A stretch of DNA of 64,000 nucleotides from Candidatus Moraniibacteriota bacterium (GTDB lineage: Bacteria > Patescibacteriota > Minisyncoccia > Moranbacterales > UBA1568), in the NCBI GenBank assembly GCA_052034975.1, contig JBPOIA010000021.1:702-64701 (forward strand), given 5' to 3'. Under the pieces are notes generated by a model. It had not been told where the DNA came from and did not search any database. It was given only the letters and a program-made list of their open reading frames with translations. Position numbers and translations under genes: made by a program. Positions 7,824 to 46,442 of the stretch are shown piece after piece (position 1 is the stretch's first letter; each line of letters starts with the position of its first letter).

Positions 7824-8177
7824 TTATTCACCGGATATGCCTGATTGCTCTTCTTGGCTTTCCTGCGCCTTGAACTGTTCTTCGAAATATTCCCGTCCCG
7901 TCTTCTCGTCGCCTCCACCGCTGCCGAGCGGCGCTGTTTGTTTCATTAGGCTGTCAAGCGAATCGAAGGGATCTTCCGACGGAACCAACTCTTTTCCTTT
8001 TTCAACCGCCTGTGGCAATTCGGTGCTCACGCTTCGGAAACTTTCCCGAAGTGACAGAAACCAAATCCCCACGATAAACGCCATCGAAACGAGCACACAG
8101 AGAAATACATACCGTCTACGGACAACTTCGGGCTGACGCCGGATAGCCTCTACTTTTTCCCATACATTCCATCCCAT
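7824..8177 (-). CDS. Hypothetical small membrane protein
   Basis: 117 aa. One TM helix ([19 protein letters not shown]). Acidic C-terminus. Confidence 0.4.
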
Positions 8178-8192
8178 ATCCCAAGTCCGTTA

Positions 8193-8852
8193 TTACCCTC
8201 CCCGATCAAGGAGTACTACTTCCATATTCTTCCCTTCCAAATCCTTCTTTTTGATGTTGAATCGCGGAAGTGCTTCTTTCGGACAGTTGCCGAGAGTGTT
8301 ACAGAACGCCTTTTCCGTCTCAAGCGGCAAGGTGAGCCCCGGAATCTTATAATGCATCGGGATCACGACATTCGGCTCAATTTTCCGCACGATTTCCGCC
8401 GCGTTCTTCGCCGAAACGGTATCTGCCCCTCCGACCGGTATAAAGAGAATGTCCACGCCGTTCACCTTGTCGAGAAGCTCTGGAGACGGGTCGTGTCCGA
8501 GCGCACCGAGAAAACAGATATGGATCTCTTCGCTCTCAAAAGTAAATATGGTGTTCTGCCCGAGCCTTGCCCCCTCTTCCGCATCGCAAAACGATTGGAA
8601 TCCGAATGCGGAAATTCCTTTGGCGGCATATTCGCCGGGCGCATCGAGAACGATTGGATCGCCTTTTAGATTTTCTTTCACACTCTCCGCATCGCCGTGC
8701 GTCAGAAACACGATACCCGCCTCTCCTTGTGGCGAACGCAAGCCAGAGCCCTTGCCAAGAGGATCGGTCCAAATAACAACATCTTCCGTCGCCCGACCGG
8801 CCGGTTTGGTGCTTATTTTAAAGCAATAATCGCCGTAGTATTGGATATTCAT
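8193..8852 (-). CDS. MBL-fold metallo-hydrolase family protein
   Basis: 219 aa. His/Asp cluster (FLTHGDAES), ICFLGALGHD and VVIPMHY resemble the UPF0173-type beta-lactamase fold. Confidence 0.55.
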   Translation of the reverse strand: MNIQYYGDYCFKISTKPAGRATEDVVIWTDPLGKGSGLRSPQGEAGIVFLTHGDAESVKENLKGDPIVLDAPGEYAAKGISAFGFQSFCDAEEGARLGQNTIFTFESEEIHICFLGALGHDPSPELLDKVNGVDILFIPVGGADTVSAKNAAEIVRKIEPNVVIPMHYKIPGLTLPLETEKAFCNTLGNCPKEALPRFNIKKKDLEGKNMEVVLLDRGG

Positions 8853-8962
8853 ATCAAAAGAATCGTTTCAGGTAACGAATACATTTTATCAAAGATTCCG
8901 GTCTCTGTCGAGCGTATCCGCGTTCAAAAAATCTCATTCCTTCCTCTTCATCAACATAGGGT

Positions 8963-11959: not shown

Positions 11960-13798
11960 ATGGAAAAAATGCTCAAGAATCTCTCGACTGTCATTCTCTT
12001 GTTTCTCCTTATTTCCGGCATATTCATCCTCTATCAGACACCGGAAAAGAAACCTTCTCCCATATCGCTCTCAGAACTGGTATCGGAAATAAACGATGGC
12101 AAGGTAAAGAAGATCGCTGTCCAGGGCAATACGCTCGACATCGAGCTTGCCGACGGCAGCCGCCAGAAAGGTAGCAAGGAATCCGAAGCGTCGCTCACCG
12201 AAACGCTCGCCAATTACGGAACCGATCGCGAGAAACTCGGAGGCGTACTCATCGACATCAAGGAAGAGTCCGGGGCGAGCTTTTGGCTCGCAGCCACGCT
12301 CCCATTCCTTCTCCCTTTCATTCTTATCTCGGCGTTCATTTGGTTTATGATGCGCCAGGCCCAACGCGGCAACGCTCAGGCACTCTCGTTCGGAACGAGC
12401 CGCGCGCGGATGCTTGATCCGAAAGACAAGAAAAAGCGCATCACGTTCGCCAACGTCGCCGGCGCGATCGAAGCAAAGACCGAGCTCGAAGAAGTGGTCG
12501 AATTCCTGAAACATCCGAAGAAGTTCCTCGCGATGGGTGCGAAAATCCCGAAAGGTGTCCTTCTTCTCGGGCCGCCCGGAACCGGCAAAACCCTGATGGC
12601 CAAGGCCGTCGCGGGCGAAGCCGGCGTGCCGTTCTTCAACATCAGCGGATCGGAATTTGTAGAGATGTTCGTCGGCGTGGGAGCAAGTCGCGTGCGTGAT
12701 CTCTTCAAACAGGCCAAAAAGAACGCTCCGGCCATCGTATTCATCGACGAAATCGACGCTGTCGGCCGTCATCGCGGCGCAGGCCTCGGCGGCGGGCACG
12801 ACGAACGCGAGCAGACTCTCAACCAGATCTTGGTCGAAATGGACGGGTTCGAGACGGATATGAGTGTCATCGTCATCGCTGCCACTAACCGTCCAGATGT
12901 TCTCGACCCGGCGCTCCTCCGGCCAGGACGTTTCGATCGCCGTGTCACGATGGATCTTCCGGATTTGGGCGAGCGCGAACAAATTCTTCAGATTCATACC
13001 AAAAACAAGCCTGTCGAAGAGAATGCTTCTCTCCGTACGCTCGCCGAACGTACGCCTGGATTTTCCGGAGCTGACCTTGCCAATCTCGTGAATGAAGCCG
13101 CTATCCTTGCCACAAGACGCGACAAGAAGATCATCGGGATGCCGGAACTCACCGAATCGATCGAAAAAGTCATTCTCGGCCCGGAACGTCGCAGTCGTAT
13201 CATCAACAAGAAGGAGAAGGAGATCGTCGCCTATCACGAAGGCGGACACGCGCTCGTCGGTGCAAGCCTCGAAAACGCCGATCCGGTACAGAAAATCTCT
13301 ATCATTTCGCGCGGACACGCCGGTGGATACACGCTGGCCGTTCCGACCGAAGACAAGAGTCTCCATTCCTACAAATATTTCGTCGACGAATTAGCTGTTC
13401 TTCTCGGTGGTTATGCGAGCGAAAAACTCATTTTCGGCGATATCACCACTGGCCCGTCAAATGACTTGGAACGCGCGACACAAATGGCGCGTGGAATGGT
13501 GACGCGCTATGGAATGAGCCGCCTCGGCGCGCGGACATTCGGTAAAAAAGAAGAGCTCGTCTTCCTCGGACGTGAAATGCATGAGGAACGAAACTACTCC
13601 GAAAAGACCGCACAAGACATCGATGCCGAGGTCACTCACCTCATCGATGAAGCCTTCCGACGCGCGACCGATATCCTCACCGAGAAACGTCTTCTTCTCG
13701 ACACGCTCGCGAAAACTCTGCTCGAAAAAGAAACGATCGAAAAAGAAGAGTTCGACAAGCTCATCGGTGCACCTTACGCCGCGCCTGCCGAAGCCTAA
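11960..13798 (+). CDS. ftsH: ATP-dependent zinc metalloprotease FtsH
   Basis: N-terminal TM helix. AAA module ([26 protein letters not shown]; second region of homology). Zinc motif HEGGHAL. Confidence 0.95.
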
Positions 13799-13804
13799 TG
13801 CTCT

Positions 13805-14686
13805 ATGGAAAAAACATCTTTCCGAGAACTGGCCCATCGCGCCTGGAATCTTTCGTTCACCGCACCGATCTTCTTCATCTTCGGATGTTTTCTCGCGATC
13901 GCTTCCGTCACTGAAAATTTTTTCCCGGCCAAGACGAGCACGGACATCCAATCGATCAAAGACTTGCTCGCTACTGGACACGTTCCGGAAAATATCCCTT
14001 TTCTGATGGTGATCGCCATTTTCTTGTTCATCATCAGGTCATTCGGCAAAGGCAATCTGATCGTATCGATCGGCGCCTCCGCTTCCAAAGATAAAAGAGG
14101 AATTCCTCTCACGCACCTGTCCATCTGGAAAAATTTTTCCCGAACCCTTCTCCTCGAAGGTACTGTCTTCTTGTTTCTCTCTGGTGCAGCGGCCATTTTG
14201 GTCATTCCGATCTTTCTTGCTTTTCGCTACAATCCGGCCGTGCTGGGAATCGTCGCGCTCGGCGCTCTCATTCTTTTTGCAGCCATCGCCATCATAGCTT
14301 TCTTCGTTCAGGAATTCAGTCTCTTCTACCGACTCCTCTCTCCTCTCAGGCTACGCTCATCGCTCGAAAACGGCGGCGTTCTTTTCAGTCGTCACACATC
14401 CCGATGTCTTTTGTTCGGATTCTTCTCCTTCGCGCTCTTCGTTCTCTTTACTTTTTGCCTAAATCTCGTTATGCTGAATATCGTCACCTTGACGGAATGG
14501 GCGGGCTTTTCCGGACAACAAGCGCTCATTTCCGCGCTTATCGCCCTCCCTATCTTCAGCTGGTGGCACGTTTTTGAACAATCTCTGCGATATCTCTTCT
14601 TCAAGGATCTTGCTGTTCCAAAAACCGAAGAATCCGCGGAAGAGTTCACTCTCAAAGACGGTATGCCGGAAACTCCCACCGCGTAG
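13805..14686 (+). CDS. Hypothetical polytopic membrane protein
   Basis: 293 aa with six or more hydrophobic helices. No motif recognised. Confidence 0.45.
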   Translation: MEKTSFRELAHRAWNLSFTAPIFFIFGCFLAIASVTENFFPAKTSTDIQSIKDLLATGHVPENIPFLMVIAIFLFIIRSFGKGNLIVSIGASASKDKRGIPLTHLSIWKNFSRTLLLEGTVFLFLSGAAAILVIPIFLAFRYNPAVLGIVALGALILFAAIAIIAFFVQEFSLFYRLLSPLRLRSSLENGGVLFSRHTSRCLLFGFFSFALFVLFTFCLNLVMLNIVTLTEWAGFSGQQALISALIALPIFSWWHVFEQSLRYLFFKDLAVPKTEESAEEFTLKDGMPETPTA

Positions 14687-17246: not shown

Positions 17247-19250
17247 TTAAACAACGTTTTTATGTTTTGTCAATACTATCAAAGAAGAGGAGGCCATCAA
17301 TCCAAATGATACCCAAAAAAGCAACTGGCCTTGTTGTATATCAAAAAAATAGTGATCAAAAAACATAATCACAAGAATAGATATTACAACAGATTTAGTC
17401 ATAATTGTCAATATTTCTTCTTCTAATGTTCCACGTGGAACATCTTTAAGATTCTCTTTCAAATCTTTTTGCTCAGAATGTTCCACGTGGAACATTTCAT
17501 TGTTTTTATACAAATGTAATATTTTAAAGAAAAATGTTCCACGTGGAACATTTCCTGAAAAAACAACTTTAATAAAAAAGAAAAATGTCGCTAATCCTAT
17601 TATACCAAGTTCCGACAAAACGATCAGGTAAACATTATGTACTGGCTGAAATTGCCATATGAGAAGTTGAGTATCAAAAAATCGATGCATACCATAAACA
17701 GACTGTCCTATACCCATACCTATAATTGGGCTTTCCTGAAAGGAATTCCATACTGATCTCATTAAAAATAGCCTTTCCTCCATAGACTGAACAAAGAAAT
17801 AGTTCCAATTTATTGCTTTAAATAAAGCAATAAATAATACTATCCCTAAAAATACAAACAAATGTTCCACGTGGAACATTTTTATATATTGTGAAAATGT
17901 TCCACGTGGAACATTTTCTAAGTGTTTATTAACGCCTGTTTCAATAAATACTTTCTTCTTAAAAAGTGGTTTATATGCAAAAATGTTCCACGTGGAACAT
18001 TTTTTTGATATCGCATTCAATATAGCCTTCGAAGAATTAAGGATAAAGAATGTTCCACGTGGAACACTTAGGCTCTCAAAAGCCTTGTTACCCATAAAAT
18101 GTTCCACGTGGAACATTTTATAAATACAAAATCCAAGATATATCCCTCCAATAAGAAGGCCAAGAATTGCTGATTTTGAAAATGTACAAATAAGACAAAG
18201 TAGCTGGATAAAAAGTGCCAATCTTAAAAACCATCTATTTTTCAAATGTTCCACGTGGAACATTTGATTATTTCTGTGGAATAGCAGTGGATAAACTGCC
18301 GTTATGAGTATAGTTATCACCAAAAACCCCCCTAATATATTTGGATGAGGAAAAAACGCATAGGATCTGACAAAGGCCTCATTTTCAATAATAACCTTTG
18401 CTATTCCAACATCTGAAACCGAAAAAATGCTTTCTTTCAGAAAAGTAAATCCCAATGATCCTTGCTTTAAAAACTGTAAAATTCCAAAAAATGCTTGAAA
18501 CAAGCCTAAAAATATAAGTATTCTGAGTAAAGGTTCAAATATGTTCCACGTGGAACATATTGATATCTCCTTACAATGTTCCACGTGAAACATTTGATTA
18601 TTTTTTTCAACACCAGGATCTTTCTTTAAAATGTTCCACGTGGAACATTTTTTTGATATCGCATTTAATAGTGCCTTCGAAGAATTAATACTAAAGAATG
18701 TTCCACGTGGAACATTTTGATTTTTATCAATATCAACATCTTCATTAAAAAGTACTGGTTGGTTTTTTATGCCTTCATTATTGAAAAATGTTCCACGTGG
18801 AACAAAATAAAGAATCAGAGTTACATACAAAAGATATCCTTCTGAAAGCTTTGCTAAGGCATAAAAAGCAAGTATTCTATTTTCTGACCAAAAAATAGAG
18901 GCTGTGGACCATAGTATGAACAAAAGTGGAGCAAGTATGAAAAAATAAAAATGTTCCACGTGGAACATTTTCTTCCAATTATGTATTGACAATATATAGT
19001 TTTTATTGTTTAATATAAAAACTATGATAAAAGCTGCCAGTGTCAAATCCGAAAGATACAGTGAGAGGTCGGTATATTCATTAAACTGACCTTCCTCGGT
19101 TAGCGGAAAAAAGGTGAAAACTTTCCGGATCGAGAAGGGGAGTGTAAGAAGGAAAAGTCCGAGCAACCATCGTTCCGAAACAGCTCTCATTGCAGCGGAG
19201 GGTTCTGTCATAAGCGGTCTTTTGGGATTCTTTTCATTATACAGAAACAT
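17247..19250 (-). CDS. O-antigen ligase (Wzy_C) family membrane protein interrupted in-frame by 15 palindromic repeat copies; possibly a pseudogene
   Basis: 719-aa ORF open across an AT-rich repeat array. Wzy_C signature PVHNVYLIVLSELGIIGL and a TFSKSAILGLLIGG segment. The track N-terminus overlaps tRNA-Ala, so the start is placed at an internal Met (MFLYNEK). Confidence 0.5.
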   Translation of the reverse strand: MFLYNEKNPKRPLMTEPSAAMRAVSERWLLGLFLLTLPFSIRKVFTFFPLTEEGQFNEYTDLSLYLSDLTLAAFIIVFILNNKNYILSIHNWKKMFHVEHFYFFILAPLLFILWSTASIFWSENRILAFYALAKLSEGYLLYVTLILYFVPRGTFFNNEGIKNQPVLFNEDVDIDKNQNVPRGTFFSINSSKALLNAISKKCSTWNILKKDPGVEKNNQMFHVEHCKEISICSTWNIFEPLLRILIFLGLFQAFFGILQFLKQGSLGFTFLKESIFSVSDVGIAKVIIENEAFVRSYAFFPHPNILGGFLVITILITAVYPLLFHRNNQMFHVEHLKNRWFLRLALFIQLLCLICTFSKSAILGLLIGGIYLGFCIYKMFHVEHFMGNKAFESLSVPRGTFFILNSSKAILNAISKKCSTWNIFAYKPLFKKKVFIETGVNKHLENVPRGTFSQYIKMFHVEHLFVFLGIVLFIALFKAINWNYFFVQSMEERLFLMRSVWNSFQESPIIGMGIGQSVYGMHRFFDTQLLIWQFQPVHNVYLIVLSELGIIGLATFFFFIKVVFSGNVPRGTFFFKILHLYKNNEMFHVEHSEQKDLKENLKDVPRGTLEEEILTIMTKSVVISILVIMFFDHYFFDIQQGQLLFWVSFGLMASSSLIVLTKHKNVV
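17427..18967. repeat. Array of 15 copies of the perfect palindrome TGTTCCACGTGGAACA (extended AATGTTCCACGTGGAACATT)
   Basis: Copies start at approximately 17427, 17479, 17535, 17863, 17898, 17984, 18051, 18100, 18247, 18542, 18577, 18632, 18699, 18789 and 18952. Two are slightly degenerate. The palindrome is stop-free in all frames. Confidence 0.9.
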
Positions 19251-19330
19251 ACGCTTTTGTGAATGCTTCGCTGATACGGCCATACAGGGTTGACGAAACT
19301 TCCGTGACAGGTATGATACAAGGGTGTCTC

Positions 19331-19403
19331 GGGCCATTAGCTCATCTGGTAGAGCGCATCCATGGCATGGATGAGGTGGCCGGTTCGAGTCCGGCATGGT
19401 CCA
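19331..19403 (+). tRNA. tRNA-Ala (anticodon GGC)
   Basis: Acceptor GGGCCAT with the G3:U70 Ala identity pair. Anticodon loop ATGGCAT. T-arm GCCGGTTCGAGTCCGGC. Confidence 0.85.
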
Positions 19404-19409
19404 CAAAAA

Positions 19410-19440
19410 CAGACGCCTCTTTGGGGCGTTTTTGTTTTAC
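19410..19440 (+). terminator. Intrinsic terminator after tRNA-Ala
   Basis: ACGCC tctttg GGGCGT followed by TTTTTGTTTT. Confidence 0.5.
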
Positions 19441-19560
19441 TTAAAATGAGAGCATTGATACTATGGAAGAAGTATGATAGAGTTCCTCTCTGCCTCCCAT
19501 CGCTCAGTGGGTTCCGGCAGATACGGGACTGATCATCTCTGAGCACAAAAGACGAGAAGC

Positions 19561-19632
19561 GCCCTTGTAGTTCAATGGATAGAACGGGCCCGTCCTAAGG
19601 GTTTGATGTAGGTTCGATTCCTGCCAAGGGCA
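19561..19632 (+). tRNA. tRNA-Arg (anticodon CCT)
   Basis: Acceptor GCCCTTG/CAAGGGC. Anticodon loop GTCCTAA. T-arm GTAGGTTCGATTCCTGC. Two G-U pairs in the anticodon stem. Confidence 0.7.
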
Positions 19633-19717
19633 CTCATTTTATCTCGAGTTCCCGGTCAGATAGACAGGGGCTTCTCAGACGTAAAAGCCGGCTTATACAA
19701 CGTTGTCCACCGATATG

Positions 19718-25656: not shown

Positions 25657-25703
25657 ATATAAATTAAAAACCACCCAAATCGGGGTGGTTTTAAATTACT
25701 TTG

Positions 25704-25775
25704 AGCGGGTAACGGGAGTCGAACCCGTATCTTAACCTTGGCAAGGTCACATAATAGCCGCTATACGATACCCGC
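25704..25775 (-). tRNA. tRNA-Gly (anticodon GCC)
   Basis: Reverse complement GCGGGTA...TGACC TTGCCAA GGTTA...ACGGGTTCGACTCCCGT TACCCGC. The D-stem is weak, so this may be divergent. Confidence 0.6.
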
Positions 25776-25853
25776 TTATGCCTCGCTCCGACGAGGAAGA
25801 TCGTCTAAAACGCATTGCTCACTATAACTGAAAAACCTCTCTTTGGCAACCGG

Positions 25854-25925
25854 TGGGACTGGCAGGGATCGAACCTGCGACCAAGCGGTTATGAGCCGCG
25901 CGCTCTACCACTGAGCTACAGTCCC
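25854..25925 (-). tRNA. tRNA with CAT anticodon (elongator Met, or Ile2 via TilS lysidinylation)
   Basis: Reverse complement GGGACTG TA GCTCAGTGGTAGAGC ... CTCATAA ... GCAGGTTCGATCCCTGC CAGTCCC. G1-C72 is paired, so this is not the initiator. Confidence 0.65.
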
Positions 25926-25973
25926 TCGGGGTCGAAACGGGTCTTTTGAACCACCCTTGACCCATATTCTGTG

Positions 25974-26045
<72 letters not shown>

Positions 26046-26096
26046 GTACTTTTGTACTTCGCTGATTGTAAAAGAAATGTCTCTAAAAATCAACTG

Positions 26097-26170
26097 TGGA
26101 CGATGCTGGACTCGAACCAGCGGCCCTCTCGGTGTAAACGAGATGCTCTAACCAACTGAGCTAATCGTCC
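26097..26170 (-). tRNA. tRNA-Val (anticodon TAC)
   Basis: Reverse complement GGACGAT TA GCTCAGTTGGTTAGAGC A TCTCG TTTACAC CGAGA ... GCTGGTTCGAGTCCAGC ATCGTCC. Confidence 0.85.
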
Positions 26171-26271
26171 GACAGATTCACTCGATACAAGTTTCTTTCA
26201 TTCTATCAAACAAAAAACCCTTCTTGAAAGGGTTCTGATGTCTAGGCCTCATCCATCCTTGTTTCGTTTTG

Positions 26272-26355
26272 TGCCCAGGAGAGGACTCGAACCTCCAATC
26301 CCTTGCGAGAACTAGCACCTCAAGCTAGCGCGTATACCAATTCCGCCACCTGGGC
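26272..26355 (-). tRNA. tRNA-Leu (anticodon GAG), long variable arm
   Basis: Reverse complement GCCCAGG TG GCGGAATTGGTATACGC G CTAGC TTGAGGT GCTAG + long arm + GGAGGTTCGAGTCCTCT CCTGGGC. Confidence 0.8.
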
Positions 26356-34543: not shown

Positions 34544-35683
34544 ATGAAAAGGGTCTTTTATGTGTCTTTGGGTATTCTCGTGTTGACGCTTATCTTTTTG
34601 GCTGCGTACAACTTCATTTTTCGCCATAATGCGAATGATCCGATAGCCGATAAGGAGAAAAAAGAGGATATCAAGGAAGAATCAGCGAGCGAGAATGCCC
34701 GCTCAGCGGAAAAGATCCTAAGTGTCATCAACGAAACCGTCCTTGGTGCCACAAGCGGTGACGACACACTCTATTACTATTCGCTCGATGACCAGTCGCT
34801 CAAAAAAGCTTCCTTGGAAGGCAAAGACAAGGAGATCCTGATGAGCAATCTTCCGGGCACACCAGCCAGGATCCTTTGGTCGCCGAAACGCGACCGTGCC
34901 TTGTTGCTGCTCAGCCAGTCCGGCGGGACGGCTCTTTGGTATTTTGCCGATTTTCAGATCAAGACCCTCGTTCCGCTCAAACCCGAAATGTCGAGACTCT
35001 CCTGGGACAACATCGGCGATCGGATCATCTACCAGTATACCGACACCAAGACCGGCGCCCGTTCTCTTAACACAGCCGCCCCAGATGGAAGCGGTTGGAA
35101 GAGGCTCGCCGACCTGAAAGACCAGGATTCTTTCTTTGCTCCCGTGCCGAAAAGCACCCTGATCTCATTTTGGAATCGTTCCAATGCCCTCGAAAAAACG
35201 TTTTTTGAGACCATCGGTATCACCGGCGAGAATCGACGTGTCCTTCTTACCGAAAAATTCGGAGCGGATTATCTGTGGTCACCGAACGGCAACCGGGTCC
35301 TCGTAAGCACCAGCGACCAAAAGGGCGGTCACTCGCTCCTTCTCAGTGTTATGAATCAGAACGGCGGGGAATTCAAGAATCTTTCCATCCCGACATTCGT
35401 AGCAAAAACCGTCTGGTCAAAAAACGGATCAGTTCTCTATTATGCTCTCCCCGGATCGCTTCCGGAGAACGCCGTCCTCCCCAACGATTATTTTGGCCGA
35501 CCTCTGTACACAAAAGACACTTTTTGGAAGATAGATTTGGAAAACGGAAAAAAAACACGCCTCCTCGACCTGGACGAAGTCTCGCAGGGCTTTGACAGCA
35601 CAGACCTCTTTCTCTCGTCGTCCGAGGACGCACTCTTCTTTACCGATCGGCAAACGAAACGTCTCTATCGTATCGACTTGTGA
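34544..35683 (+). CDS. Membrane-anchored TolB-like beta-propeller protein
   Basis: N-terminal TM helix. Repeated WSP[NK]G/LYY propeller blades (LWSPKRDRALLL, WSPNGNRVLV, WSKNGSVLYY). Confidence 0.55.
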   Translation: MKRVFYVSLGILVLTLIFLAAYNFIFRHNANDPIADKEKKEDIKEESASENARSAEKILSVINETVLGATSGDDTLYYYSLDDQSLKKASLEGKDKEILMSNLPGTPARILWSPKRDRALLLLSQSGGTALWYFADFQIKTLVPLKPEMSRLSWDNIGDRIIYQYTDTKTGARSLNTAAPDGSGWKRLADLKDQDSFFAPVPKSTLISFWNRSNALEKTFFETIGITGENRRVLLTEKFGADYLWSPNGNRVLVSTSDQKGGHSLLLSVMNQNGGEFKNLSIPTFVAKTVWSKNGSVLYYALPGSLPENAVLPNDYFGRPLYTKDTFWKIDLENGKKTRLLDLDEVSQGFDSTDLFLSSSEDALFFTDRQTKRLYRIDL

Positions 35684-36936
35684 TCTTCAAAAGTTTTTCC
35701 GGCCGGTTCGTTTTCCACGAATCGGTTTTTTGTTGTCGTGAAGATCAGCGCGATCAGGAGCCAAAACGAAAACGCCGAATCGGTTCCGAAATACGGGGTA
35801 TCCACAAGGCCAGAAACCAAAAAAAGAACGAGAAGCGAACCGAGAATCTTTAGAAGTGCCCGGATCTCTCCGTTAGATGTTTCTTTGTATGTCCGGTACA
35901 GACAGATGAAGGCTCGTAAAAGCAGAAGCAGGAACCCGATAAGCCCGAGGAATCCGGTTTCAAGCCATACGGCCAAAAACAAATTGTGCGGCTCAGGAAC
36001 CGCCCATTCGAGATATGGGGGAAAGTATTTCTGATATGACAGGTACTCTTCCTGAAACCGACCGAGACCGATACCAAGCACCGGGTGATCGGCGAGGACG
36101 CTTCCTGCTGCGTGCCAGATCATCACTCGTGAGGCAAGCGAGGAGCGTTCGTCAAAGGAGATGAGTGAGTGCCATTTTTCAGTCCCTCGCTCAAAAAACA
36201 CTGCCACCAAGCAAAAAAGTATGAGAACTATCGCGATACCGCCTTTTCCTCGACGTCCGGACGTGAAGAAAAATACCAAGAGAGAGAGAAGAGTCGCCAC
36301 CCAAACACCGTATGAGCGTGTCAGAAAAATAGCGGCAATCACGAGTGCGCCCGAAACCATAAAGAGGGCCTTTTGGCGAATCGCCGCTTGAACAGAAAAA
36401 GCTTGTTCCAAAAAATATGCGGCCAAAGGGACGCCCGGAGCGAGAAAGAGTGCCAGAAAATTTGGCGAAGAAAACCAGGCCTCTAAGCGTCCGTCGTATG
36501 TCATTCGCCCGTCAAAGAAAAACCACAAGCTTCCGATCGACGAAGATACGGTAACGAAAAGCCATGCCAAAAGAGATCGCTTCACGGCTGTGCGCGACAA
36601 CGGTACAAGAAGAATGAGCACAGCCATCAAGGTCGGAAAGAAGAACCAGGTCTTGAAAAGTCCGAGCGATTTGAACGAGAGCGGATGGACAAAAAGAGAA
36701 AGGAGCGTACCGAACAGAAATAAGGCAGTAGCGAAAATTGCCCAACGATCAGGAGACGAGTTTTGTCCGTGCCAATAAGATCCTTGGACGCCCAAAAACA
36801 GCACGAGGAGAAGAATCACTCCTCCTTCGGGCGTATAGAGAGGCAAGCCGAAAACATCCGTTTTCAGCCGAGCAAAAGGAAGCAAAAGAAACATTCCGGC
36901 GACACAAAAAGAAAGGAGTCTCAATGCGAGCGGCAT
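35665..36936 (-). CDS. O-antigen ligase (Wzy_C) family membrane protein
   Basis: Polytopic. Wzy_C signature EPHNLFLAVWLETGFLGL. Confidence 0.7.
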   Translation of the reverse strand: MPLALRLLSFCVAGMFLLLPFARLKTDVFGLPLYTPEGGVILLLVLFLGVQGSYWHGQNSSPDRWAIFATALFLFGTLLSLFVHPLSFKSLGLFKTWFFFPTLMAVLILLVPLSRTAVKRSLLAWLFVTVSSSIGSLWFFFDGRMTYDGRLEAWFSSPNFLALFLAPGVPLAAYFLEQAFSVQAAIRQKALFMVSGALVIAAIFLTRSYGVWVATLLSLLVFFFTSGRRGKGGIAIVLILFCLVAVFFERGTEKWHSLISFDERSSLASRVMIWHAAGSVLADHPVLGIGLGRFQEEYLSYQKYFPPYLEWAVPEPHNLFLAVWLETGFLGLIGFLLLLLRAFICLYRTYKETSNGEIRALLKILGSLLVLFLVSGLVDTPYFGTDSAFSFWLLIALIFTTTKNRFVENEPAGKTFEDHKSIR

Positions 36937-38222
36937 AAGCGCGTTTCCGTATGATTATGGAACGATCCGGCAAAGGCAATGAGAAACAGGAAGAGCGGTA
37001 AGACGTGCACCGAAAAAATCGGTGTCTCAAAAAGCGAATGTACCGAAAAGATGGTGAGCGATAAGAGTGTGGCTAAGGCGAACAGGTCTTTTTCTTTCCT
37101 CCATCTCCGGGCAGAGCGCAGAATGGCTGTTCCGAGCAATCCGAGAAAAAAGAAGAGTCCGAGAAGGCCCGTTTCTGCTGCCACATCAAGATAGAGGTTG
37201 TGCGCGTAAATCGGCTCACGATACGAGGCGCTCGGTTTTACGATGATCGGATAATTTCCGAGACCGACTCCTCCAAACGGACGTTCGGCGACAAACGCCG
37301 CCGCCTCTTTCCAGAGGCGCAGCCGCTCACTGTTCGAACCGTCTTCCAAAGAAAAACTCGAGACGAAACGTGCCCCGAAAGGACCCGAAAACACGGCAGC
37401 AACGATCAGGGCCAAGAAAATACCCGCGAGAAATTTTTTTCCTTTTTCTCGCCATTCCGCCAAACGAGGGGCCGTCATACCGAAACATACGGCGGCGGAC
37501 AGAGCCAGACCAACGTAACCCCCGCGGGAAAATGTCAGAAAGTCGGCAAGTAAGAGGAGGCTCGTTGCAAACAAAGCTGTTTGCGATCGTTCCTTCAAAA
37601 ATAACGCAAAAGCGAACGGGAACGCGAGACCGAAATAAAACGCCGCGATGTGCGGATCGGGGAAAAACGCCGTCGCGCGCAAAAAGGTCTCTCCGGAAAG
37701 ATTAACGAGAAGACTCGGGTACGCCGCCACGGCTTCTCCAAAAGCATTTCCAAGAAAGAACGGGAGGATTGTCTCCGTCCACACCGAAAAGACTTTTTCG
37801 ACACCGAAAACGAACTGCGAAAAAAACTGTACGATGGCAACGAGAGCTGCCGCAGAAGCGCCGACAAGAAGAAACCGTATGAGACGAAGCCGCGACTTCT
37901 CATCGCGGAACTGATCAAAAAAAACGAGAAGGAGCGGAAAGAATGTCCAAAGAAACACGTTTTTCCGAAAAGCCCACTCCTTGTTTTCCGCCCAAAAGAC
38001 CGACGCACTTATGAAAAAAATAAACGATGCGGCGAAAGCGAGCATTGTCGGATCCGGCAGGTACAGTGATCGCCGACAAAGACTTGCCGCTGCCCAACAA
38101 AAAACGATCAGGAGTGATCCTATTCGGACAATCGCGAGATCCACCCCTTCGGTGGGCGACAGTGCCCATTGAAATGGGAGAGCGAGAAGAAAAATAGGGA
38201 GAAGGATACGCATATGTTTCAT
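36921..38222 (-). CDS. O-antigen ligase (Wzy_C) family membrane protein, second paralogue
   Basis: Signature YAHNLYLDVAAETGLLGL. Start taken at MKHMRILLP with an ATGA overlap of the upstream GT2 stop. The track ORF extends to 38420. Confidence 0.65.
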   Translation of the reverse strand: MKHMRILLPIFLLALPFQWALSPTEGVDLAIVRIGSLLIVFCWAAASLCRRSLYLPDPTMLAFAASFIFFISASVFWAENKEWAFRKNVFLWTFFPLLLVFFDQFRDEKSRLRLIRFLLVGASAAALVAIVQFFSQFVFGVEKVFSVWTETILPFFLGNAFGEAVAAYPSLLVNLSGETFLRATAFFPDPHIAAFYFGLAFPFAFALFLKERSQTALFATSLLLLADFLTFSRGGYVGLALSAAVCFGMTAPRLAEWREKGKKFLAGIFLALIVAAVFSGPFGARFVSSFSLEDGSNSERLRLWKEAAAFVAERPFGGVGLGNYPIIVKPSASYREPIYAHNLYLDVAAETGLLGLFFFLGLLGTAILRSARRWRKEKDLFALATLLSLTIFSVHSLFETPIFSVHVLPLFLFLIAFAGSFHNHTETRLCRSH

Positions 38223-39019
38223 CGACCGTATCGAAAAAATCGGAAAATCCGCAAGACGATATACTCCCGCCATGGCCGATACTTTTTGAAATACCGCTCT
38301 TGGGACCGATAATAGTGCTTTTTCTGTTCTCGGGACGAATGTTGGCTCGTTCCACCGAAGTGCAGAAGCGAAAACCTTGAAAGCCTTCTCTTGTATCCAG
38401 CCCGTGAGACGCGCTGACAAAAATCAACGTCTTCAAAATACAGAAAAAAATCCTCGTCAAACCCGGAAAGCTCCAAAAAAAGGCTTTTCCGAACAAACAA
38501 CGCGGCACCGCTTACCCAATCCGTTTCCCGATCATCCTCGTTTCCGGATAGCTGCTCGTTCTTCTTCTGAAAAAACTTTCCGGCCAAGATTTTTCCCAGC
38601 GTCGGCCACCGACCGAAGCTCCACCGTTCCGCTTCGCCGGAAGGGCGGAATAGCCTCATTCCCAATACGCCCAAAGCCGGGTCTTTTTCGAATGCTTCGC
38701 GAATACCTTCGAGACACTGTTCTCGGAAGCACGTATCCGGATTGAGGAACCCGATGATTTTTCCCGAAGCTCTCCGTGCGCCGATGTTCGCCGCGACACC
38801 GAAACCCTGGTTCTCTTTATTTTGGAGAAGAAGAAATCCGTATTTTTCCCGAAGACGCTCTACGAGGTCCCGTTCTAAGACGTCATTGTTGGACACAATG
38901 ATCTCGAAAGGTCCGCTGTTCCGATTTTCATATGAAAAAAGGCTTTTCAGGGCGTCTTCGAGACGTCGCGCACTACGATAATTGACGTAAATGAGAGAAA
39001 TGTTCGGATGATCGCCCAT
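38219..39019 (-). CDS. Family-2 glycosyltransferase
   Basis: ISLIYVNYRSARRL, GFGVAANIGARRASGKIIGFLNPDT and an ED motif give a GT-A fold. Confidence 0.8.
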   Translation of the reverse strand: MGDHPNISLIYVNYRSARRLEDALKSLFSYENRNSGPFEIIVSNNDVLERDLVERLREKYGFLLLQNKENQGFGVAANIGARRASGKIIGFLNPDTCFREQCLEGIREAFEKDPALGVLGMRLFRPSGEAERWSFGRWPTLGKILAGKFFQKKNEQLSGNEDDRETDWVSGAALFVRKSLFLELSGFDEDFFLYFEDVDFCQRVSRAGYKRRLSRFSLLHFGGTSQHSSREQKKHYYRSQERYFKKYRPWREYIVLRIFRFFRYGR

Positions 39020-39857
39020 AGAATTTTTCGTAGGCCCGGAATACGAAGGCGGCCTCTTTCCTTCCGAGAAGTCGGTCCATCCGGTTTTTTATCCTCCGTA
39101 TTGTACCATAGAGAGCTCCATACGGACGGATGAACCAGGGTGAGTGTTTTTCGAAGAATAAAAGTCCGGAATAAACGAGGTAGAAGGTCTTTTCGTTGCT
39201 TTTTCGGCTTTTTTCCTGATGATGCACGTGAGCACGCGGCACAACCAGGCAGCGAAATCCGGCTTTTCTCGCGCGCCAGCAAAAGTCAGCATCTTCGTAA
39301 TAAAGGAAGAATCGCTCATCGAGAAATCCTATCTTTTCGATCACCTCTCGCCTGATGAAGAGCGCGCAACCGGTCAAAAATCTACTTTCATACGCGTCTT
39401 GTCGCAAAAGTCTTTTTGGAGGGGTGGTGTGCTCGGTGCGCATCCGAAGAAAATCCACTCTTCCGGCGCCGAACCATATCTTTTCCGATCCGTCCTCAAA
39501 AATAAGCGGGCTGAACAGTCCGGCGTCGGGATACCGCTTCGCGGCAGCAACCAAAAAATCGAGCGTATCATTTTCGGAAGAGGCGTCGGAGTTGAACAGC
39601 CAGACGCTGTCGGCACCACGGGCAAACGCCTCACGCATCCCGATGTTCATTCCGCCGGCAAACCCCTTGTTTTCTCCGTTCGCGACGAAAACGAAAGACG
39701 GGAAACCCTTCTTGGCGACCAAGAACGAATCATCCGTCGATCCGTTATCCGCAACGATGATTTCCTTGTCTTCGTATCGGAGTTCCGAAAGGGAGCGTAG
39801 GCACTTCAAAAGACAGTCCGCGCCGTTGTAATTGAGAACAATGATGGCGACTTTCAT
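38973..39857 (-). CDS. Family-2 glycosyltransferase
   Basis: VAIIVLNYNGADCL...IIVADNGSTDDS, GFAGGMNIG and DxD give a GT-A fold. Confidence 0.8.
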   Translation of the reverse strand: MKVAIIVLNYNGADCLLKCLRSLSELRYEDKEIIVADNGSTDDSFLVAKKGFPSFVFVANGENKGFAGGMNIGMREAFARGADSVWLFNSDASSENDTLDFLVAAAKRYPDAGLFSPLIFEDGSEKIWFGAGRVDFLRMRTEHTTPPKRLLRQDAYESRFLTGCALFIRREVIEKIGFLDERFFLYYEDADFCWRARKAGFRCLVVPRAHVHHQEKSRKSNEKTFYLVYSGLLFFEKHSPWFIRPYGALYGTIRRIKNRMDRLLGRKEAAFVFRAYEKFYGRSSEHFSHLRQLS

Positions 39858-39888
39858 AACATAGCGATACTGACGCCCCGATCAAACG

Positions 39889-41355
39889 CTAGGGCACCAT
39901 TGTTTCAAAACGCTCCGCGTCTGCGAGAGATTCTTCGCGTTTCGAGGAAAAGATACTCAGGAGCTCGTCTTGCGTCACCGCACGAGAAAGCCATAACGCG
40001 AAGATGTAGGTAAAAACGGCGGCGGCGCCTGCGATCAGAAACGCCTGATTTTGAAGAAAAAACAGCGTCACCGCCATCGCCGCACCCGAAACGAAGATTC
40101 GACCGGTGTTTTCGAACGATGGGGCGAAACGGATATGTCTGTATGCGAGCGTGCCGGTCAGAAGCACGACCAACATTTCCGTCAGAAGCGACGCCCAGGC
40201 CGCTCCGGTATACGAATATCGCTCGATAAGAAAGATGTTCAGAATGATATTGAATGCCGCTGCTATCATCAAGGTCTGCATCAGCCTCTTCTGAGCGTTC
40301 CCCACCACAAGCAACATATTGAAGTAGTGTCCGAAGAATATGAAGCTGAGCGCAAAAATGAGGATTCGGAGAACCGGGGCGGACTCCTGAAAGCCCGTTC
40401 CGCTCACGATGCGTACGATATCCCCGGCCAAGAACCATGTCCCGATGATAAGTGGGGTGACAATAAGAAGAAACACCTTGAAGGTTTTGTTCGCGATTTC
40501 CTCAAACTGCCTCCGATCGGTGAAGATGAACCGCGACAGGAGGGGGAGGATAAGCCCGGCTAACATCGCCGGAAAGAAAATGAGATTTTCCATTATCTTG
40601 TACGCCACGTTGTAAATGCCGACGTGAGCGTTCGATTGCATCACCGACAAAAGGATGGTGTCCATCTTGAAATAGGCGAATGTGATGATGGCTGTCATTC
40701 CCATCGGCCAAGATTCTCGAAGAAAAGATTTCCAGTGTGCCGTATCGATATGGAGAGAAAATATCGCGTACCGGCGGCAGAGGATGAACGCTAAAAGAGC
40801 GTTGAATGAGAGAGAGACGAGAAGCGTCGCGGCCACCGCAAGAAATCCGAGATCTTCCTTTATGACGAGCGCGACCATTCCCACCTGGAGGAGCTTCCCA
40901 AGAAATTCAATGATCGCCACCTTGTCCATTGCCAGGCGTTTCTGAAAAATACCGTTTAAAGTGACGGAGAGCGTGGAAAAGAGGATGGCAAAAGCGGCAA
41001 TCAGGATACCCGTCTTCACGTCTCCAGAATAATCGAAGAAAAAAAGGATGAGCGGCGAAAGGGCAACGAGCGCCGTGGAAGAGAGAAATCTCAACGTGAT
41101 GATGCTTCCGAGAATCTTCTGTTCATCCGCGCCCTCGCGCGATATTTCTCGCGCCATCATCGGAGCAAGGCCCAGGTCGGCCAAAGCCGAAAAAAAGGCA
41201 AAAAACGCCAATATGGTGGCATATTTCCCGAAGCCATCCTGCCCGAGATACCCGGTAATCAGGCGAATCGAGAGAAGCGAGAGCACCACCGTCGAAAACA
41301 CCTTCAAGAAGGAATTGAGAACTACAATATAGGCGATTTTTCTCGCGACAGCCAT
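39889..41355 (-). CDS. Wzx-type polysaccharide flippase (MOP superfamily)
   Basis: About 12 TM helices. N-terminus LSIRLITGYLGQDGFGKYATILAFFAF is typical of Wzx/RfbX. Confidence 0.75.
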   Translation of the reverse strand: MAVARKIAYIVVLNSFLKVFSTVVLSLLSIRLITGYLGQDGFGKYATILAFFAFFSALADLGLAPMMAREISREGADEQKILGSIITLRFLSSTALVALSPLILFFFDYSGDVKTGILIAAFAILFSTLSVTLNGIFQKRLAMDKVAIIEFLGKLLQVGMVALVIKEDLGFLAVAATLLVSLSFNALLAFILCRRYAIFSLHIDTAHWKSFLRESWPMGMTAIITFAYFKMDTILLSVMQSNAHVGIYNVAYKIMENLIFFPAMLAGLILPLLSRFIFTDRRQFEEIANKTFKVFLLIVTPLIIGTWFLAGDIVRIVSGTGFQESAPVLRILIFALSFIFFGHYFNMLLVVGNAQKRLMQTLMIAAAFNIILNIFLIERYSYTGAAWASLLTEMLVVLLTGTLAYRHIRFAPSFENTGRIFVSGAAMAVTLFFLQNQAFLIAGAAAVFTYIFALWLSRAVTQDELLSIFSSKREESLADAERFETMVP

Positions 41356-41377
41356 TGGATTTTTTGAATATCGTGCG

Positions 41378-41882: not shown

Positions 41883-42608
41883 TTACGCCTGTTTCGGCTT
41901 AAAAATATACATCTGCTGAAAAATCATAAACAGGGTCGAGAACAGCCAGTACAAGGACAGGGCGGCCGGAAACGTCGCGCCGATAAAGAGCGTCAACCCG
42001 GGACCAAGATAGAGCATCTGCTTATTCATTATAGCCGCAAAATCCGGCTCATCGGAAGCGGATGATGCCGATGAAGTAGCTTTTTGGCTCTGTAAAAGCA
42101 TTTTTGTCTGATAATACTGGGCGGCAGCCGAGAGAATTGCAAAAACGTAACTTGGCTTCGTAAGATCGACTATGTTCATAAAAAGATGCCCGATATTTCC
42201 AGGATTGGAGATAAAGGCGTACAAATCAGCCTGATTCACGACTAAACCGGCCTGGGAAATGTTCATAATCACCCGGTAAATAGCGATGAGGAAAACGAGC
42301 TGGATGATGAGCGGAAGGCAGCCGGAGAACGGGTTTACCTTGTTCTCCTTATAGAAATCCATTATGGCGCGCGTCTGTTTTTCCTTATCGTCCTTGTGTT
42401 TTTTCTGGATTTCCTTTATTTTCGGCTGAATTTCCTGCATTTTCTTCTGCGACTCTATCTGTTTTTTGGAAAGTGGGATGAATAATGTCTTGATGACGAG
42501 GGTCGTAAGAATGATAGCTATACCAAAATCCTGTCCGGGAACGGTATTATAGAAGAATATGAGGATATTATAGAGTGGCTGATAGATGAATATGTCGAAA
42601 AGGGCCAT
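41883..42608 (-). CDS. yidC: Membrane protein insertase YidC (short Oxa1-type)
   Basis: LYNILIFFYN, IIL[TL]TLVIKTLFIPLS and NPFSGCLPLIIQ are YidC core motifs. Confidence 0.85.
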   Translation of the reverse strand: MALFDIFIYQPLYNILIFFYNTVPGQDFGIAIILTTLVIKTLFIPLSKKQIESQKKMQEIQPKIKEIQKKHKDDKEKQTRAIMDFYKENKVNPFSGCLPLIIQLVFLIAIYRVIMNISQAGLVVNQADLYAFISNPGNIGHLFMNIVDLTKPSYVFAILSAAAQYYQTKMLLQSQKATSSASSASDEPDFAAIMNKQMLYLGPGLTLFIGATFPAALSLYWLFSTLFMIFQQMYIFKPKQA

Positions 42609-42619
42609 ATCTCTTTGTA

Positions 42620-42961
42620 TTAATTCGGATAAATTTGTCTTAAAAACCCATTAAAAACCTGTTGAATAGCCTCTTTTGTCCTATTTCTTGGCCTCTTCGT
42701 AAGAAAAAAAACAATATCTACTCCCTCAGAGGGACCTTTCTGAAAAAGTATCCTTAGCGTTTCTGAAAAAGTGCGCTTCAAACGATTCCTCTCGACAGCG
42801 GTCGGAACATACTTCTTACTCAAAGAAAACCCGACTTTTGGCTTATTTTCAGTATTTTTAACGTATCGGCAGCCTATTTCTTCAAAAAAAAGGGGTCTTC
42901 CGCTACGAAATACCCTATCGAAATCCTCCTTTTTTTTCAACCGGAATCCCTTTTTTAGCAT
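42620..42961 (-). CDS. rnpA: Ribonuclease P protein component
   Basis: LKKKEDFDRVF...VGFSLSKKYVPTAVERNRLKRTFSE matches the RnpA RNR motif region. Confidence 0.85.
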   Translation of the reverse strand: MLKKGFRLKKKEDFDRVFRSGRPLFFEEIGCRYVKNTENKPKVGFSLSKKYVPTAVERNRLKRTFSETLRILFQKGPSEGVDIVFFLTKRPRNRTKEAIQQVFNGFLRQIYPN

Positions 42962-42964
42962 ATT

Positions 42965-43105
42965 TTAAGCTACCGAAAGCTTTTTTCTTCCGGAAGCACG
43001 TCGACGGGCGATCACTTTTTTCCCGCCTTTCGTGCTCATTCGCTTCAAAAATCCATGGCGACGCGAGCGCTTACGGGTTTTCGGCTGATATGTTCTCTTT
43101 GGCAT
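42965..43105 (-). CDS. rpmH: 50S ribosomal protein L34
   Basis: Not in the ORF track. Reverse complement translates to [46 protein letters not shown]. Confidence 0.9.
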
Positions 43106-43290
43106 ATCATTTTGAAATAAATTGATTTAGCTCTGATAGTTTATGTAGTGTATCTAAAAAAGAGAGAAAAGTCAATTTATAAGGAAAAAGTGCACTTATT
43201 CACTTCTTATCCACTTTTTTAGCATCTTTTAGCTTCGCTACGAAGGTTTTTATCTGTTATAATGAGTTTTGCTGTTGATAATTTTCCTCT
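43106..43290. other. Putative oriC segment upstream of dnaA
   Basis: DnaA-box matches CTTATCCAC (~43208) and TGTTGATAA (~43275). Conserved rpmH|dnaA junction. Confidence 0.5.
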
Positions 43291-44709: not shown

Positions 44710-44949
44710 GGTTGTATAAATAAAAGAAAGAGGTGTATAAGAGTTTAATAAGAAAAAGAAAAAAGGGTATATTTTATTAAAAAAGAAAAATATTTCTTTT
44801 TATCCTTATAAAGTGTGGATTTTTATAAGAGATATCAAGGACTTCTTTTTATAAAAATCCTAAAAATAAAGCTTAAACTAACTTTATTCAGATATTCACC
44901 GAAGTAATGATAATAATAATTTCTTAATATATATACTCTATTATTTTTT
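44710..44949. other. AT-rich dnaA-dnaN intergenic region; probable DNA-unwinding element with DnaA-box variants
   Basis: Over 75% AT. Carries TTATCCTTAT and AAGTGTGGATTTTTA (ATCCACA core). Confidence 0.45.
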
Positions 44950-46098
44950 ATGAAACTTATCTGTACTCAAGAAAATCTTCAAAAAGCCCTTTCTTACCTA
45001 GAGCGTGTTGTTGGAAAACAAAGTACTCTTCCGATCCTGAGTAATTTTCTTTTAGAGACTGAAAATGGGAGATTAAAGATTTCTGCGACAAATCTTGAAA
45101 TTGGAGTGATTGTCTATATAGGGGCGAAAATAGAACAAGAAGGAAAAATAGCCATTCCAGCAAAATTATTAATGAATTTTATTTCTAATCTTCCTTATAG
45201 TGATGTTGTGGAGCTCTCTACGGAGAATTTTGTAATACATATAACCACCCCAACTCATCAAATGAAAATAAAAGGATTAAATGGGAAGGATTTTCCTATT
45301 ATTCCACAATATAAAAAGGAATATTTTTTCTCTTTTCCGGCACAAAAACTAAAAAATGCGCTTACAAGGGTACTTTTCTGTGCGAGTATAAATGAAGCTC
45401 GATTAGAACTTACGGGAGCACATATCTTCTTTTTTCAGGATTCTATCCATCTTGCAGCAACGGATAGTTTTCGGCTTGCGGAAGAAATTATCCCTTTTAC
45501 GGAATATGGTGAAGGATATCTTTCTTTCTTACAAAATACCCCATCACTCATACTCCCTCTTCATACACTTCAGGAAATTTCTAGAGTGATCACTCCTGAA
45601 AGTAATGAGGTAAAGATAGCACTTGAAGAAAATCAGATATTTTTCGAAGTCGATGGTGTACAAATCATCTCACGGATTATTAATGGAAAATATCCAGAAT
45701 ATAAACAAATTATCCCACAACAATTTACTCTCCAAATCATCTTTCAGAAAGAGATTTTTCAGCGCGCGATAAAGATAGCGAGTGCCCTCTCAATGTATAA
45801 CGAAAACGAGATAACCCTTTCTTTTGATCCGAGAAATTCACAATGTACAGTCACTTCGGTATCAAAAGAAGTCGGGGAAAATGTCACGACACTCCCAATA
45901 GAATTTTTTGAAGGAAAAACGCCGCTTACAATAACATTTAATCCACGATACGTGCTGGAAGGAATAAATGCTCTTGGAGGAGAAAAAATACTTTTTCTTG
46001 CGAATACAGAAGCAACCCCTGCGGGTATGCGAATGATGAAAGGGGAGCGCGAACCAGAACAGAATTATCTTTATATTCTGATGCCGATCAGGAAATAA
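44950..46098 (+). CDS. dnaN: DNA polymerase III beta sliding clamp
   Basis: MKLICTQENLQKALSYLERVV...LPILSNFLLE N-terminus. Three-domain length. Confidence 0.9.
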   Translation: MKLICTQENLQKALSYLERVVGKQSTLPILSNFLLETENGRLKISATNLEIGVIVYIGAKIEQEGKIAIPAKLLMNFISNLPYSDVVELSTENFVIHITTPTHQMKIKGLNGKDFPIIPQYKKEYFFSFPAQKLKNALTRVLFCASINEARLELTGAHIFFFQDSIHLAATDSFRLAEEIIPFTEYGEGYLSFLQNTPSLILPLHTLQEISRVITPESNEVKIALEENQIFFEVDGVQIISRIINGKYPEYKQIIPQQFTLQIIFQKEIFQRAIKIASALSMYNENEITLSFDPRNSQCTVTSVSKEVGENVTTLPIEFFEGKTPLTITFNPRYVLEGINALGGEKILFLANTEATPAGMRMMKGEREPEQNYLYILMPIRK

Positions 46099-46107
46099 AT
46101 AGAGTCT

Positions 46108-46395: not shown

Positions 46396-46442
46396 AGCAT
46401 CATTTTTTGATCCAACGGATGCGGTATAATAAGGAAGAGAAT

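Follow-up and report, generated by a model that had tools for sequence, protein, structure and literature searches.

The closest described counterparts of the element reported here are the parS clusters of chromosomal ParABS systems and sopC, the centromere of the F plasmid. In model species, parS sites often lie inside coding sequences, for instance within spo0J in Bacillus subtilis, and are spread over tens to hundreds of kilobases (kb) and several genes. In sopC, a 43-bp unit is repeated twelve times, and SopB, a protein of the ParB family, binds a 16-bp inverted repeat present in each unit. This plasmid centromere is discussed in earlier work (PMC3597684). parS itself is a centromere-like, ParB-bound site, normally found in the origin-proximal fifth of the chromosome, the ori domain (PMC7022226), and the species studied carry 2 to 22 sites per chromosome, with 22 in Myxococcus xanthus, 21 in Streptomyces coelicolor, 10 in B. 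subtilis and parS1-4 in Pseudomonas aeruginosa (PMC7022226 Table 1). While parS/ParB centromeres have been well studied in cultured model bacteria, no paper was found for the Candidate Phyla Radiation (CPR), and the searchable literature returned no description of parS or ParB in Patescibacteria, CPR, Moranbacteria or Saccharibacteria. Here, we describe a 64,000-nucleotide stretch from a Candidatus Moraniibacteriota bacterium (contig JBPOIA010000021.1, positions 702 to 64,701; hereafter the window), in which one gene for a predicted O-antigen-ligase-like (Wzy_C) membrane protein contains an array of 15 parS-type palindromes. Judging from its sequence and position, this array is probably the chromosome's centromere, in which canonical parS sites are very densely clustered ~24 kb from oriC.

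The array consists of 15 copies of the core TGTTCCACGTGGAACA between positions 17427 and 18967, of which 14 are exact and one (18577-18592) carries a single mismatch, against 0.03 copies expected in shuffled sequence of the 64-kb window. No further copy was found across the window when up to two mismatches were allowed. The spacing is irregular (35-328 bp) and the density reaches 15 sites in 1.54 kb, or ~10 per kb, within one open reading frame (ORF). All sites are in frame and are read in three phases, as MFHVEH (six sites), VPRGT (six) and CSTWN (three), which is possible in this gene because TGTTCCACGTGGAACA is free of stop codons in every phase. The GC content is 0.32 at 17-19 kb, compared to ~0.50 in the flanks, and after masking of the palindromes the host gene has a GC content of 0.21-0.37, the first 120 nucleotides (nt) being different (0.49). 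The original prediction made for this stretch had described most of these features, and they stand: 15 palindromes with none elsewhere in the window, an AT-rich region between flanks of ~50% GC, and a 719-amino-acid (aa) minus-strand ORF that stays open through the array with the palindrome read in three frames. Its tally for the extended 20-mer AATGTTCCACGTGGAACATT, 13 exact and two near-exact copies, has to be revised, the recount giving 10 exact copies, three with one mismatch and two with two mismatches. An assembly artefact was considered as well and rejected, since arrays of the same architecture were found in dozens of assemblies produced independently in different studies.

The 16-mer is letter-for-letter identical to parS as published for Pseudomonas putida and P. 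aeruginosa (PMC7022226 Table 1; PMC4368675) and falls within the general chromosomal parS consensus TGTTNCACGTGAAACA. ParAB of both P. putida and B. subtilis recognize this 16-mer. The parS pattern TGTTNCACGTGNAACA is matched by every copy, i.e., by the 14 exact TGTTCCACGTGGAACA and by the single variant TGTTCCACGTGAAACA. In addition, a full-text literature search with the 16-mer returned chromosome-partition papers exclusively. The array shares with the chromosomal ParABS clusters of P. aeruginosa, M. xanthus, S. coelicolor and B. subtilis the 16-bp palindrome, its degenerate position, the proximity to the origin and the multiplicity of sites. It differs from them in the packing of all 15 sites into 1.54 kb of a single ORF, in their conserved in-frame positions within loops, in their inheritance across a candidate class, and in that parAB is not adjacent. 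Similarly, sopC gathers at least ten ParB-family sites in 0.5-1.5 kb that act as one centromere, a role which is the one proposed for the present array. However, sopC is a regular, non-coding tandem array with its own sequence and is carried by a plasmid, whereas the array described here is irregular, chromosomal, protein-coding and built from chromosomal parS.

The array is located ~24.3 kb from dnaA and the region of the GC-skew minimum, the cumulative GC skew reaching its lowest value at ~45-46 kb in the window. A scan for DnaA boxes gave a weak enrichment (16 vs 8.9 expected, five of them around dnaA), which is regarded as supporting only. The window also holds gyrA, ftsH, polA, ruvABC, tRNAs and other housekeeping genes, and the context is therefore chromosomal. 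In relatives having both loci on one contig, the distance between array and dnaA is 22.1 kb (JBPPMJ010000002.1) and 36.6 kb (JBAQEZ010000003.1, a 767-kb contig of the near-complete assembly GCA_049287005.1, the locus of which contains 17 exact sites), and no parS was found in the dnaA-centered stretches of these two genomes (16.6 and 21.4 kb). As a separate observation on base composition, a second AT-rich island extends over 42000-47000 (GC 0.35-0.41 vs ~0.50) and covers the yidC-dnaA intergenic region, dnaA and dnaN; this island and the parS gene, both of them origin-related loci, are compositionally distinct from the rest of the window.

Conservation of the array was assessed with one genome per species, leading to 80 orthologous loci (L001-L080). 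Three or more in-gene sites are present at 59 of these 80 loci, with a range of 3 to 17 and a maximum of 17 exact copies. Allowing for one mismatch, the orthologous genes (143 kb in total) contain 517 sites, while the 1.13 Mb of flanking sequence of the 80 loci contains none. The host protein has more than 100 homologues in Patescibacteria (Moranbacteria/Moraniibacteriota, Parcubacteria, Minisyncoccota). The identity between relatives is merely 30-44%, yet many FHVEH, VPRGT and STWN peptides are found among them; by comparison, DnaA homologues are 67-87% identical to the DnaA of the window, while the host protein does not exceed 44%. In an alignment of 60 sequences, site peptides share the same column and phase at five positions, in 57, 53, 57, 58 and 58 sequences, respectively, and core sites have a common alignment column and phase in 50-58 of the 60 homologues. 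The gene neighborhood is conserved as well, with rbfA-DHH-udg on one side and TSP3-ftsH-tilS-rpsA-MBL-gyrA on the other.

Codon usage was compared within the 59 site-bearing orthologues. FHVE is encoded as exactly TTCCACGTGGAA in 154 of 164 cases, while 1.3% would be expected from the codon usage of the same genes. Likewise, the exact palindrome codons are used for VPRGT in 163/164 cases (0.27% expected) and for STWN in 121/124 cases (0.43% expected). Outside the sites, conserved residues are encoded by a mixture of synonymous codons, the most frequent one having a mean share of 0.57. With exact codons at the sites and a fast-evolving protein around them, the 16-mers are therefore invariant islands, and these data show that selection acts on the DNA and not on the peptide. 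The main variants hit position 5 and/or 12 (C/T, G/A), and the two commonest, TGTTTCACGTGGAACA (36 copies) and TGTTTCACGTGAAACA (34 copies), both alter the known degenerate position of parS. In another Moraniibacteriota locus (L010, 10233-11836), all 14 sites are TGTTTCACGTGAAACA. This variant contains a TGA in one of the three phases, and the sites of L010 are confined to the remaining two, in agreement with the importance that the original prediction had given to a stop-free palindrome; the encoded peptides follow the altered DNA and become FHVKH and VSRET. This suggests that the array evolves in concert as a whole, possibly following a change in ParB specificity.

An opposite interpretation would be that MFHVEH, VPRGT and CSTWN are functional protein motifs, of which the DNA palindrome is a by-product. 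The recurrence of these peptides at conserved positions of the family is consistent with such a role. However, this interpretation is refuted by the codon analysis, synonymous codons being almost never used, and it would have to explain why one DNA word in three phases provides three unrelated peptides. Furthermore, the segments concerned are predicted to be disordered, the L010 peptides change with the DNA, and in one relative (L179, see below) the sites are found without an ORF. We consequently give it practically no credence.

Regarding the host protein, its assignment as O-antigen-ligase-like, already made in the original prediction, is supported by a Pfam Wzy_C (PF04932) match of 41.8 bits, for a gathering cut-off of 31.7 bits (E = 1.2e-10, residues 453-544). 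A polytopic topology is predicted from the hydropathy segments and from the AlphaFold2 model, whose helical core has a predicted local distance difference test (pLDDT) score of 70-90, and 26 columns are invariant across 24 homologues. The maximal minus-strand ORF (17247-19406) encodes the 719 aa mentioned above, but its first 65 codons overlap tRNA-Ala(GGC) on the opposite strand and homologue alignments begin only at about residue 16 of a 654-aa form; the likely start is therefore the ATG at 19211. One intact ORF is kept in 57 of the 59 orthologues, which supports that the gene is real and that the palindrome-encoded peptides are passengers.

Based on hydropathy, the sites are found in hydrophilic segments or at helix boundaries. 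Thirteen of them are distributed over three loops (A, B and C) and the two others are single sites next to transmembrane (TM) helices (Table 1), the one at 18952-18967 being among the most conserved positions of the family. Most of the three loops has no aligned counterpart in Wzy_C homologues lacking sites or in two palindrome-free paralogues encoded in the window, and the stretches of the AlphaFold2 model with pLDDT below 50 are the site-bearing ones. The inserts thus map to loops, a point on which the original prediction had asked for an alignment with site-free ligases. A Foldseek search of the model against the PDB gave nothing at E <= 0.001, the long disordered loops probably interfering with it. 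A further conserved DNA motif, TGTCAAT, precedes the first site: its Ser codon is TCA in 55/55 orthologues, and 42 of 59 orthologues carry the whole motif, against 5.5 expected. It could be another protein-binding or regulatory site.

The array is also found without the gene. A metagenome contig from a close relative (L179), whose FtsH and RpsA are 78% identical to those of the window, contains 16 exact sites in 812 bp (8113-8924) of non-coding DNA with 35% GC, between the TSP3 gene and tRNA-Ala/tRNA-Arg/rbfA. This array is flanked by the same tRNA-Ala and tRNA-Arg pair as the gene of the window, and the syntenic slot contains no ORF longer than 92 aa and no detectable Wzy remnant. The function of the array is therefore separable from the coding function, and AT-richness is a property of the array locus and not of the gene.

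Viral and metagenome contigs provided 138 loci picked by motif only. A metagenome scan for three closely spaced exact 16-mers led to 120 loci, only 10 of which are Wzy orthologues, and a scan of viral contigs for paired sites led to 18 contigs with 2-5 sites each, none of them with a Wzy gene or a large array. On the stretch available for each locus, a ParA-like gene is present at 60 and a ParB-like gene at 44 of the 138 loci, typically within 1-2 kb of the sites, and both values are lower bounds, as many of the contigs are short. Several clusters are located beside dnaA or yidC, including on Patescibacteria-like contigs. In particular, four contigs with strong similarity to the proteins of the window have clusters of five to six sites at ~0.3-2 kb from dnaA or yidC (L102, 13583-13822; L192, 10707-11008; L211, 43-321; L138, 11835-12461), the cluster of L138 corresponding to a Wzy orthologue located ~2.2 kb from dnaA. 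The putative centromere is therefore not at a fixed position with respect to oriC in this group.

Two further types of arrays were found next to par genes. In L146, from another uncultured bacterium (12271-13964; the same array as in L223 and L224), at least 22 sites with a tandem period of ~44 bp flank parA, in the gene order gyrA-gyrB-dnaN-dnaA followed by rnpA-yidD-yidC-parA; both contigs holding this 22-site array end inside it, i.e., the assemblies break there. In an organism with a GC content of 0.63 (L206, 2201-3783; L166, 2211-3764), 14 exact sites are present in ~1.5 kb directly upstream of parA-parB, and this array has long open frames on both strands only because the palindrome is stop-free. 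These arrays are made of the same 16-mer as the Moranbacteria array, with a similar or higher density (9-25 sites per kb), and that of L146 is likewise in the neighborhood of dnaA. In contrast, they are apparently non-coding and located beside par genes, L146 having no single spanning ORF although two overlapping frames are open, while the Moranbacteria array forms part of a conserved ORF and no par gene was seen near it.

The main inference of the original prediction was that of a mobile, frame-preserving palindromic element which proliferated inside the gene, akin to Rickettsia palindromic elements (RPEs), repetitive extragenic palindromic (REP) sequences or miniature inverted-repeat transposable elements (MITEs). 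Many identical short palindromes, kept in frame in three phases and lying within insertions relative to other Wzy_C proteins, are compatible with such an origin, and RPEs are similarly short palindromic DNA found in frame in ORFs and tolerated as surface loops. However, RPEs and REP sequences with their REP-associated tyrosine transposases (RAYT) are dispersed, longer or imperfect and thought to be mobile, whereas the present palindrome is a perfect unit of 16-20 bp with the sequence of parS, restricted to one orthologous locus and absent from the rest of the window and from the flanks. In addition, its positions and phases are shared across distant species whose host proteins are 30-44% identical. 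Among the 40 window ORFs of at least 150 aa that were scanned, i.e., window proteins only, no transposase-family Pfam match was found. A mobile element is thus a most improbable explanation and this inference is not retained, while the alternative also offered in the original prediction, a dense array of DNA-binding sites, is supported by the evidence, the sequence being that of the ParB-binding parS.

The changes in copy number are visible in the genes themselves. The gene of the window contains two copies of a 90-nt module with two sites (Table 1), L010 has a duplicated 172-nt module with three sites (98% identity), and own intragenic repeats are present in 46 of the 59 orthologues, some of them 92-99% identical. 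Sites are therefore gained and lost as the modules bearing them are locally duplicated or converted around conserved core sites, and not through transposition. The gene-embedded array is best read as one which grows by intragenic module duplication, and not as a REP/RPE-like mobile element. The same duplicated modules, the variation from 3 to 17 copies and the fast evolution of the host protein could also point to a recombination or phase-variation substrate diversifying or switching a surface-polysaccharide enzyme. This appears very unlikely: the ORF is intact in 57 of 59 orthologues and the core sites are fixed in position and phase, recombination does not need a perfect 16-mer matching a known protein-binding site, and the gene-less array of L179 leaves nothing to vary.

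Collectively, the identity with parS, the proximity to the origin, the restriction to one locus, the conservation at the DNA level, the location in loops, the persistence without an ORF and the association with parAB elsewhere support that the array is a centromere. A possible mechanism can be proposed, in which the presence of ParB, its binding and loading as a clamp, the role in segregation and the benefit of site density are inferred. Each 16-bp palindrome would be the loading site for one ParB dimer; CTP-bound ParB would close into a clamp at parS and slide to the neighboring DNA. With many sites side by side, loading would increase and a single compact partition complex would form close to the origin. 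This complex would label the origin for segregation, by way of ParA where it is present, and for the loading of SMC. In Moranbacteria and related Patescibacteria, the fast-evolving Wzy_C gene hosts the sites in frame, within three disordered loop insertions and at two helix boundaries; the protein would tolerate the passenger peptides while selection acts on the DNA, and sites would be gained or lost by duplication or conversion of the modules bearing them.

Several points weigh against a centromere. No ParB or ParA gene was found by motif regex and phmmer in the 64-kb window or within 10 kb on either side of the 80 orthologous loci. The probes were B. subtilis Spo0J and Soj, and they were validated on other loci (E values of 1e-10 to 1e-112, mostly <1e-40). 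Furthermore, a single parS is enough in model species (PMC7022226), which leaves the need for 15 unexplained. Nor does a centromere account for the stay of the array inside this gene or for the AT-richness of the locus, and the restriction of the 16-mer to this locus is based on the window and the flanks.

The lack of a ParB gene in the window and flanks could indicate that another sequence-specific protein binds the array, such as a Noc- or KorB-type ParB paralogue or a CACGTG regulator, for control or silencing of the glycan gene or for nucleoid occlusion. ParB-family paralogues have diverged to other sites, and a single glycan-related gene is consistently associated with the array. Nevertheless, we consider such a protein unlikely, as the site is the exact canonical parS, with most variants at its degenerate position, and as the array is origin-proximal and the same clusters flank parAB genes elsewhere. 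Moreover, the array survives in L179 where the gene is gone, and regulating that gene therefore cannot be its purpose. Concerning the stay of the array in this gene, it is conceivable, with a rather low probability, that the centromere has been captured in a membrane-protein gene for a function. Coupled transcription, translation and membrane insertion would then tether ParB-parS and the origin to the envelope, maybe without ParA, or ParB would gate the surface-glycan enzyme with the cell cycle. Under such a functional capture, the AT-rich spacers and TGTCAAT would be parts of a composite element.

For the centromere proposed here, the site and its presumed reader, ParB, are already known; what is new is that the loops of a single conserved ORF hold ~10 sites per kb, that this arrangement is inherited across a candidate class and that an ORF-less version exists. 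The locus would represent a compact, point-like centromere at ~10 sites per kb and ~24 kb from oriC, in 59 of the 80 species-level genomes sampled. It would also illustrate that the same nucleotides can serve over long evolutionary times both as a cis-acting chromosome element and as protein-coding sequence, one DNA word dictating three passenger peptides. In practice, the array may offer an easy way to recognize the origin region in fragmented metagenome-assembled genomes (MAGs) of Patescibacteria and a natural test case for the relation between parS multiplicity and ParB clamp loading. It is also a hazard for assembly and annotation, since contigs of some assemblies end within such arrays and the start of the ORF is misplaced by gene callers.

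Table 1. Features of the parS-type array, its host gene and the predicted origin region (window coordinates).
Feature	Coordinates	Strand	Basis and remarks
Host gene, predicted Wzy_C (O-antigen-ligase-like) polytopic membrane protein, 654 aa	17247..19211	-	Pfam, homologues, AlphaFold2
parS-type 16-bp palindromes, n=15	17427..18967	n/a (.)	Identical to published Pseudomonas parS
Site starts	17427, 17479, 17535, 17863, 17898, 17984, 18051, 18100		
Site starts, continued	18247, 18542, 18577 (variant TGTTCCACGTGAAACA), 18632, 18699, 18789, 18952		
Two-site module plus spacer, 90 nt, copy 1	17980..18069	.	92% identical to 18628-18717
Two-site module, 90 nt, copy 2	18628..18717	.	92% identical to 17980-18069
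Loop A, 5 sites, residues ~136-225	18542..18804	-	Hydrophilic; pLDDT <50 at 141-222
Loop B, 5 sites, residues ~366-450	17863..18115	-	Hydrophilic; pLDDT <50 at 369-447
Loop C, 3 sites, residues ~554-597	17427..17550	-	Hydrophilic; pLDDT <50 at 555-594
Single site, TM-helix boundary, residue 82, MFHVEH	18952..18967	-	FHVE-phase site in this column in 57/60 sequences
Single site, TM-helix boundary, residue 317, MFHVEH	18247..18262	-	58/60 sequences; low-confidence linker, pLDDT <50 at 314-322
DNA motif TGTCAAT (L-S-I codons), ~20 nt upstream of first site	18985..18991	-	Nucleotide-level conservation
tRNA-Ala(GGC), 5' boundary of host gene, syntenic landmark	19331..19404	+	Same tRNA-Ala and tRNA-Arg pair flanks the L179 array
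yidC	41883..42608		Pfam; jag also in origin region
yidC-dnaA intergenic region, probable oriC	42609..43290	.	Gene identities, skew switch, weak DnaA-box-like 9-mers at 43207 and 43273
dnaA	43291..44709	+	Pfam domains; 24.3 kb from array
dnaN	44950..46098		Pfam domains

Other observations were made on the host gene family and its surroundings. In L222 (9651-9971), six exact parS sites are located just upstream of an orthologue which is annotated in the deposited MAG as a 425-aa protein starting at 10001; its start has probably been mis-called around the array. The two palindrome-free Wzy_C paralogues of the window (35665-36936 and 36921-38420) belong to a glycosyltransferase/flippase cluster (35665-41397) which directly adjoins jag-yidC-dnaA and is likewise beside dnaA in two relatives. 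Among the tRNA genes, a tRNA-Ala/tRNA-Arg pair (19331-19633) is immediately upstream of the parS gene and a minus-strand cluster at 25703-26355 contains tRNA-Gly, -Met, -Phe, -Val and -Leu. Finally, a 1007-aa ORF (55796-58819) has two T2SSE (PilB-like ATPase) matches and looks like a tandem or fused secretion ATPase.

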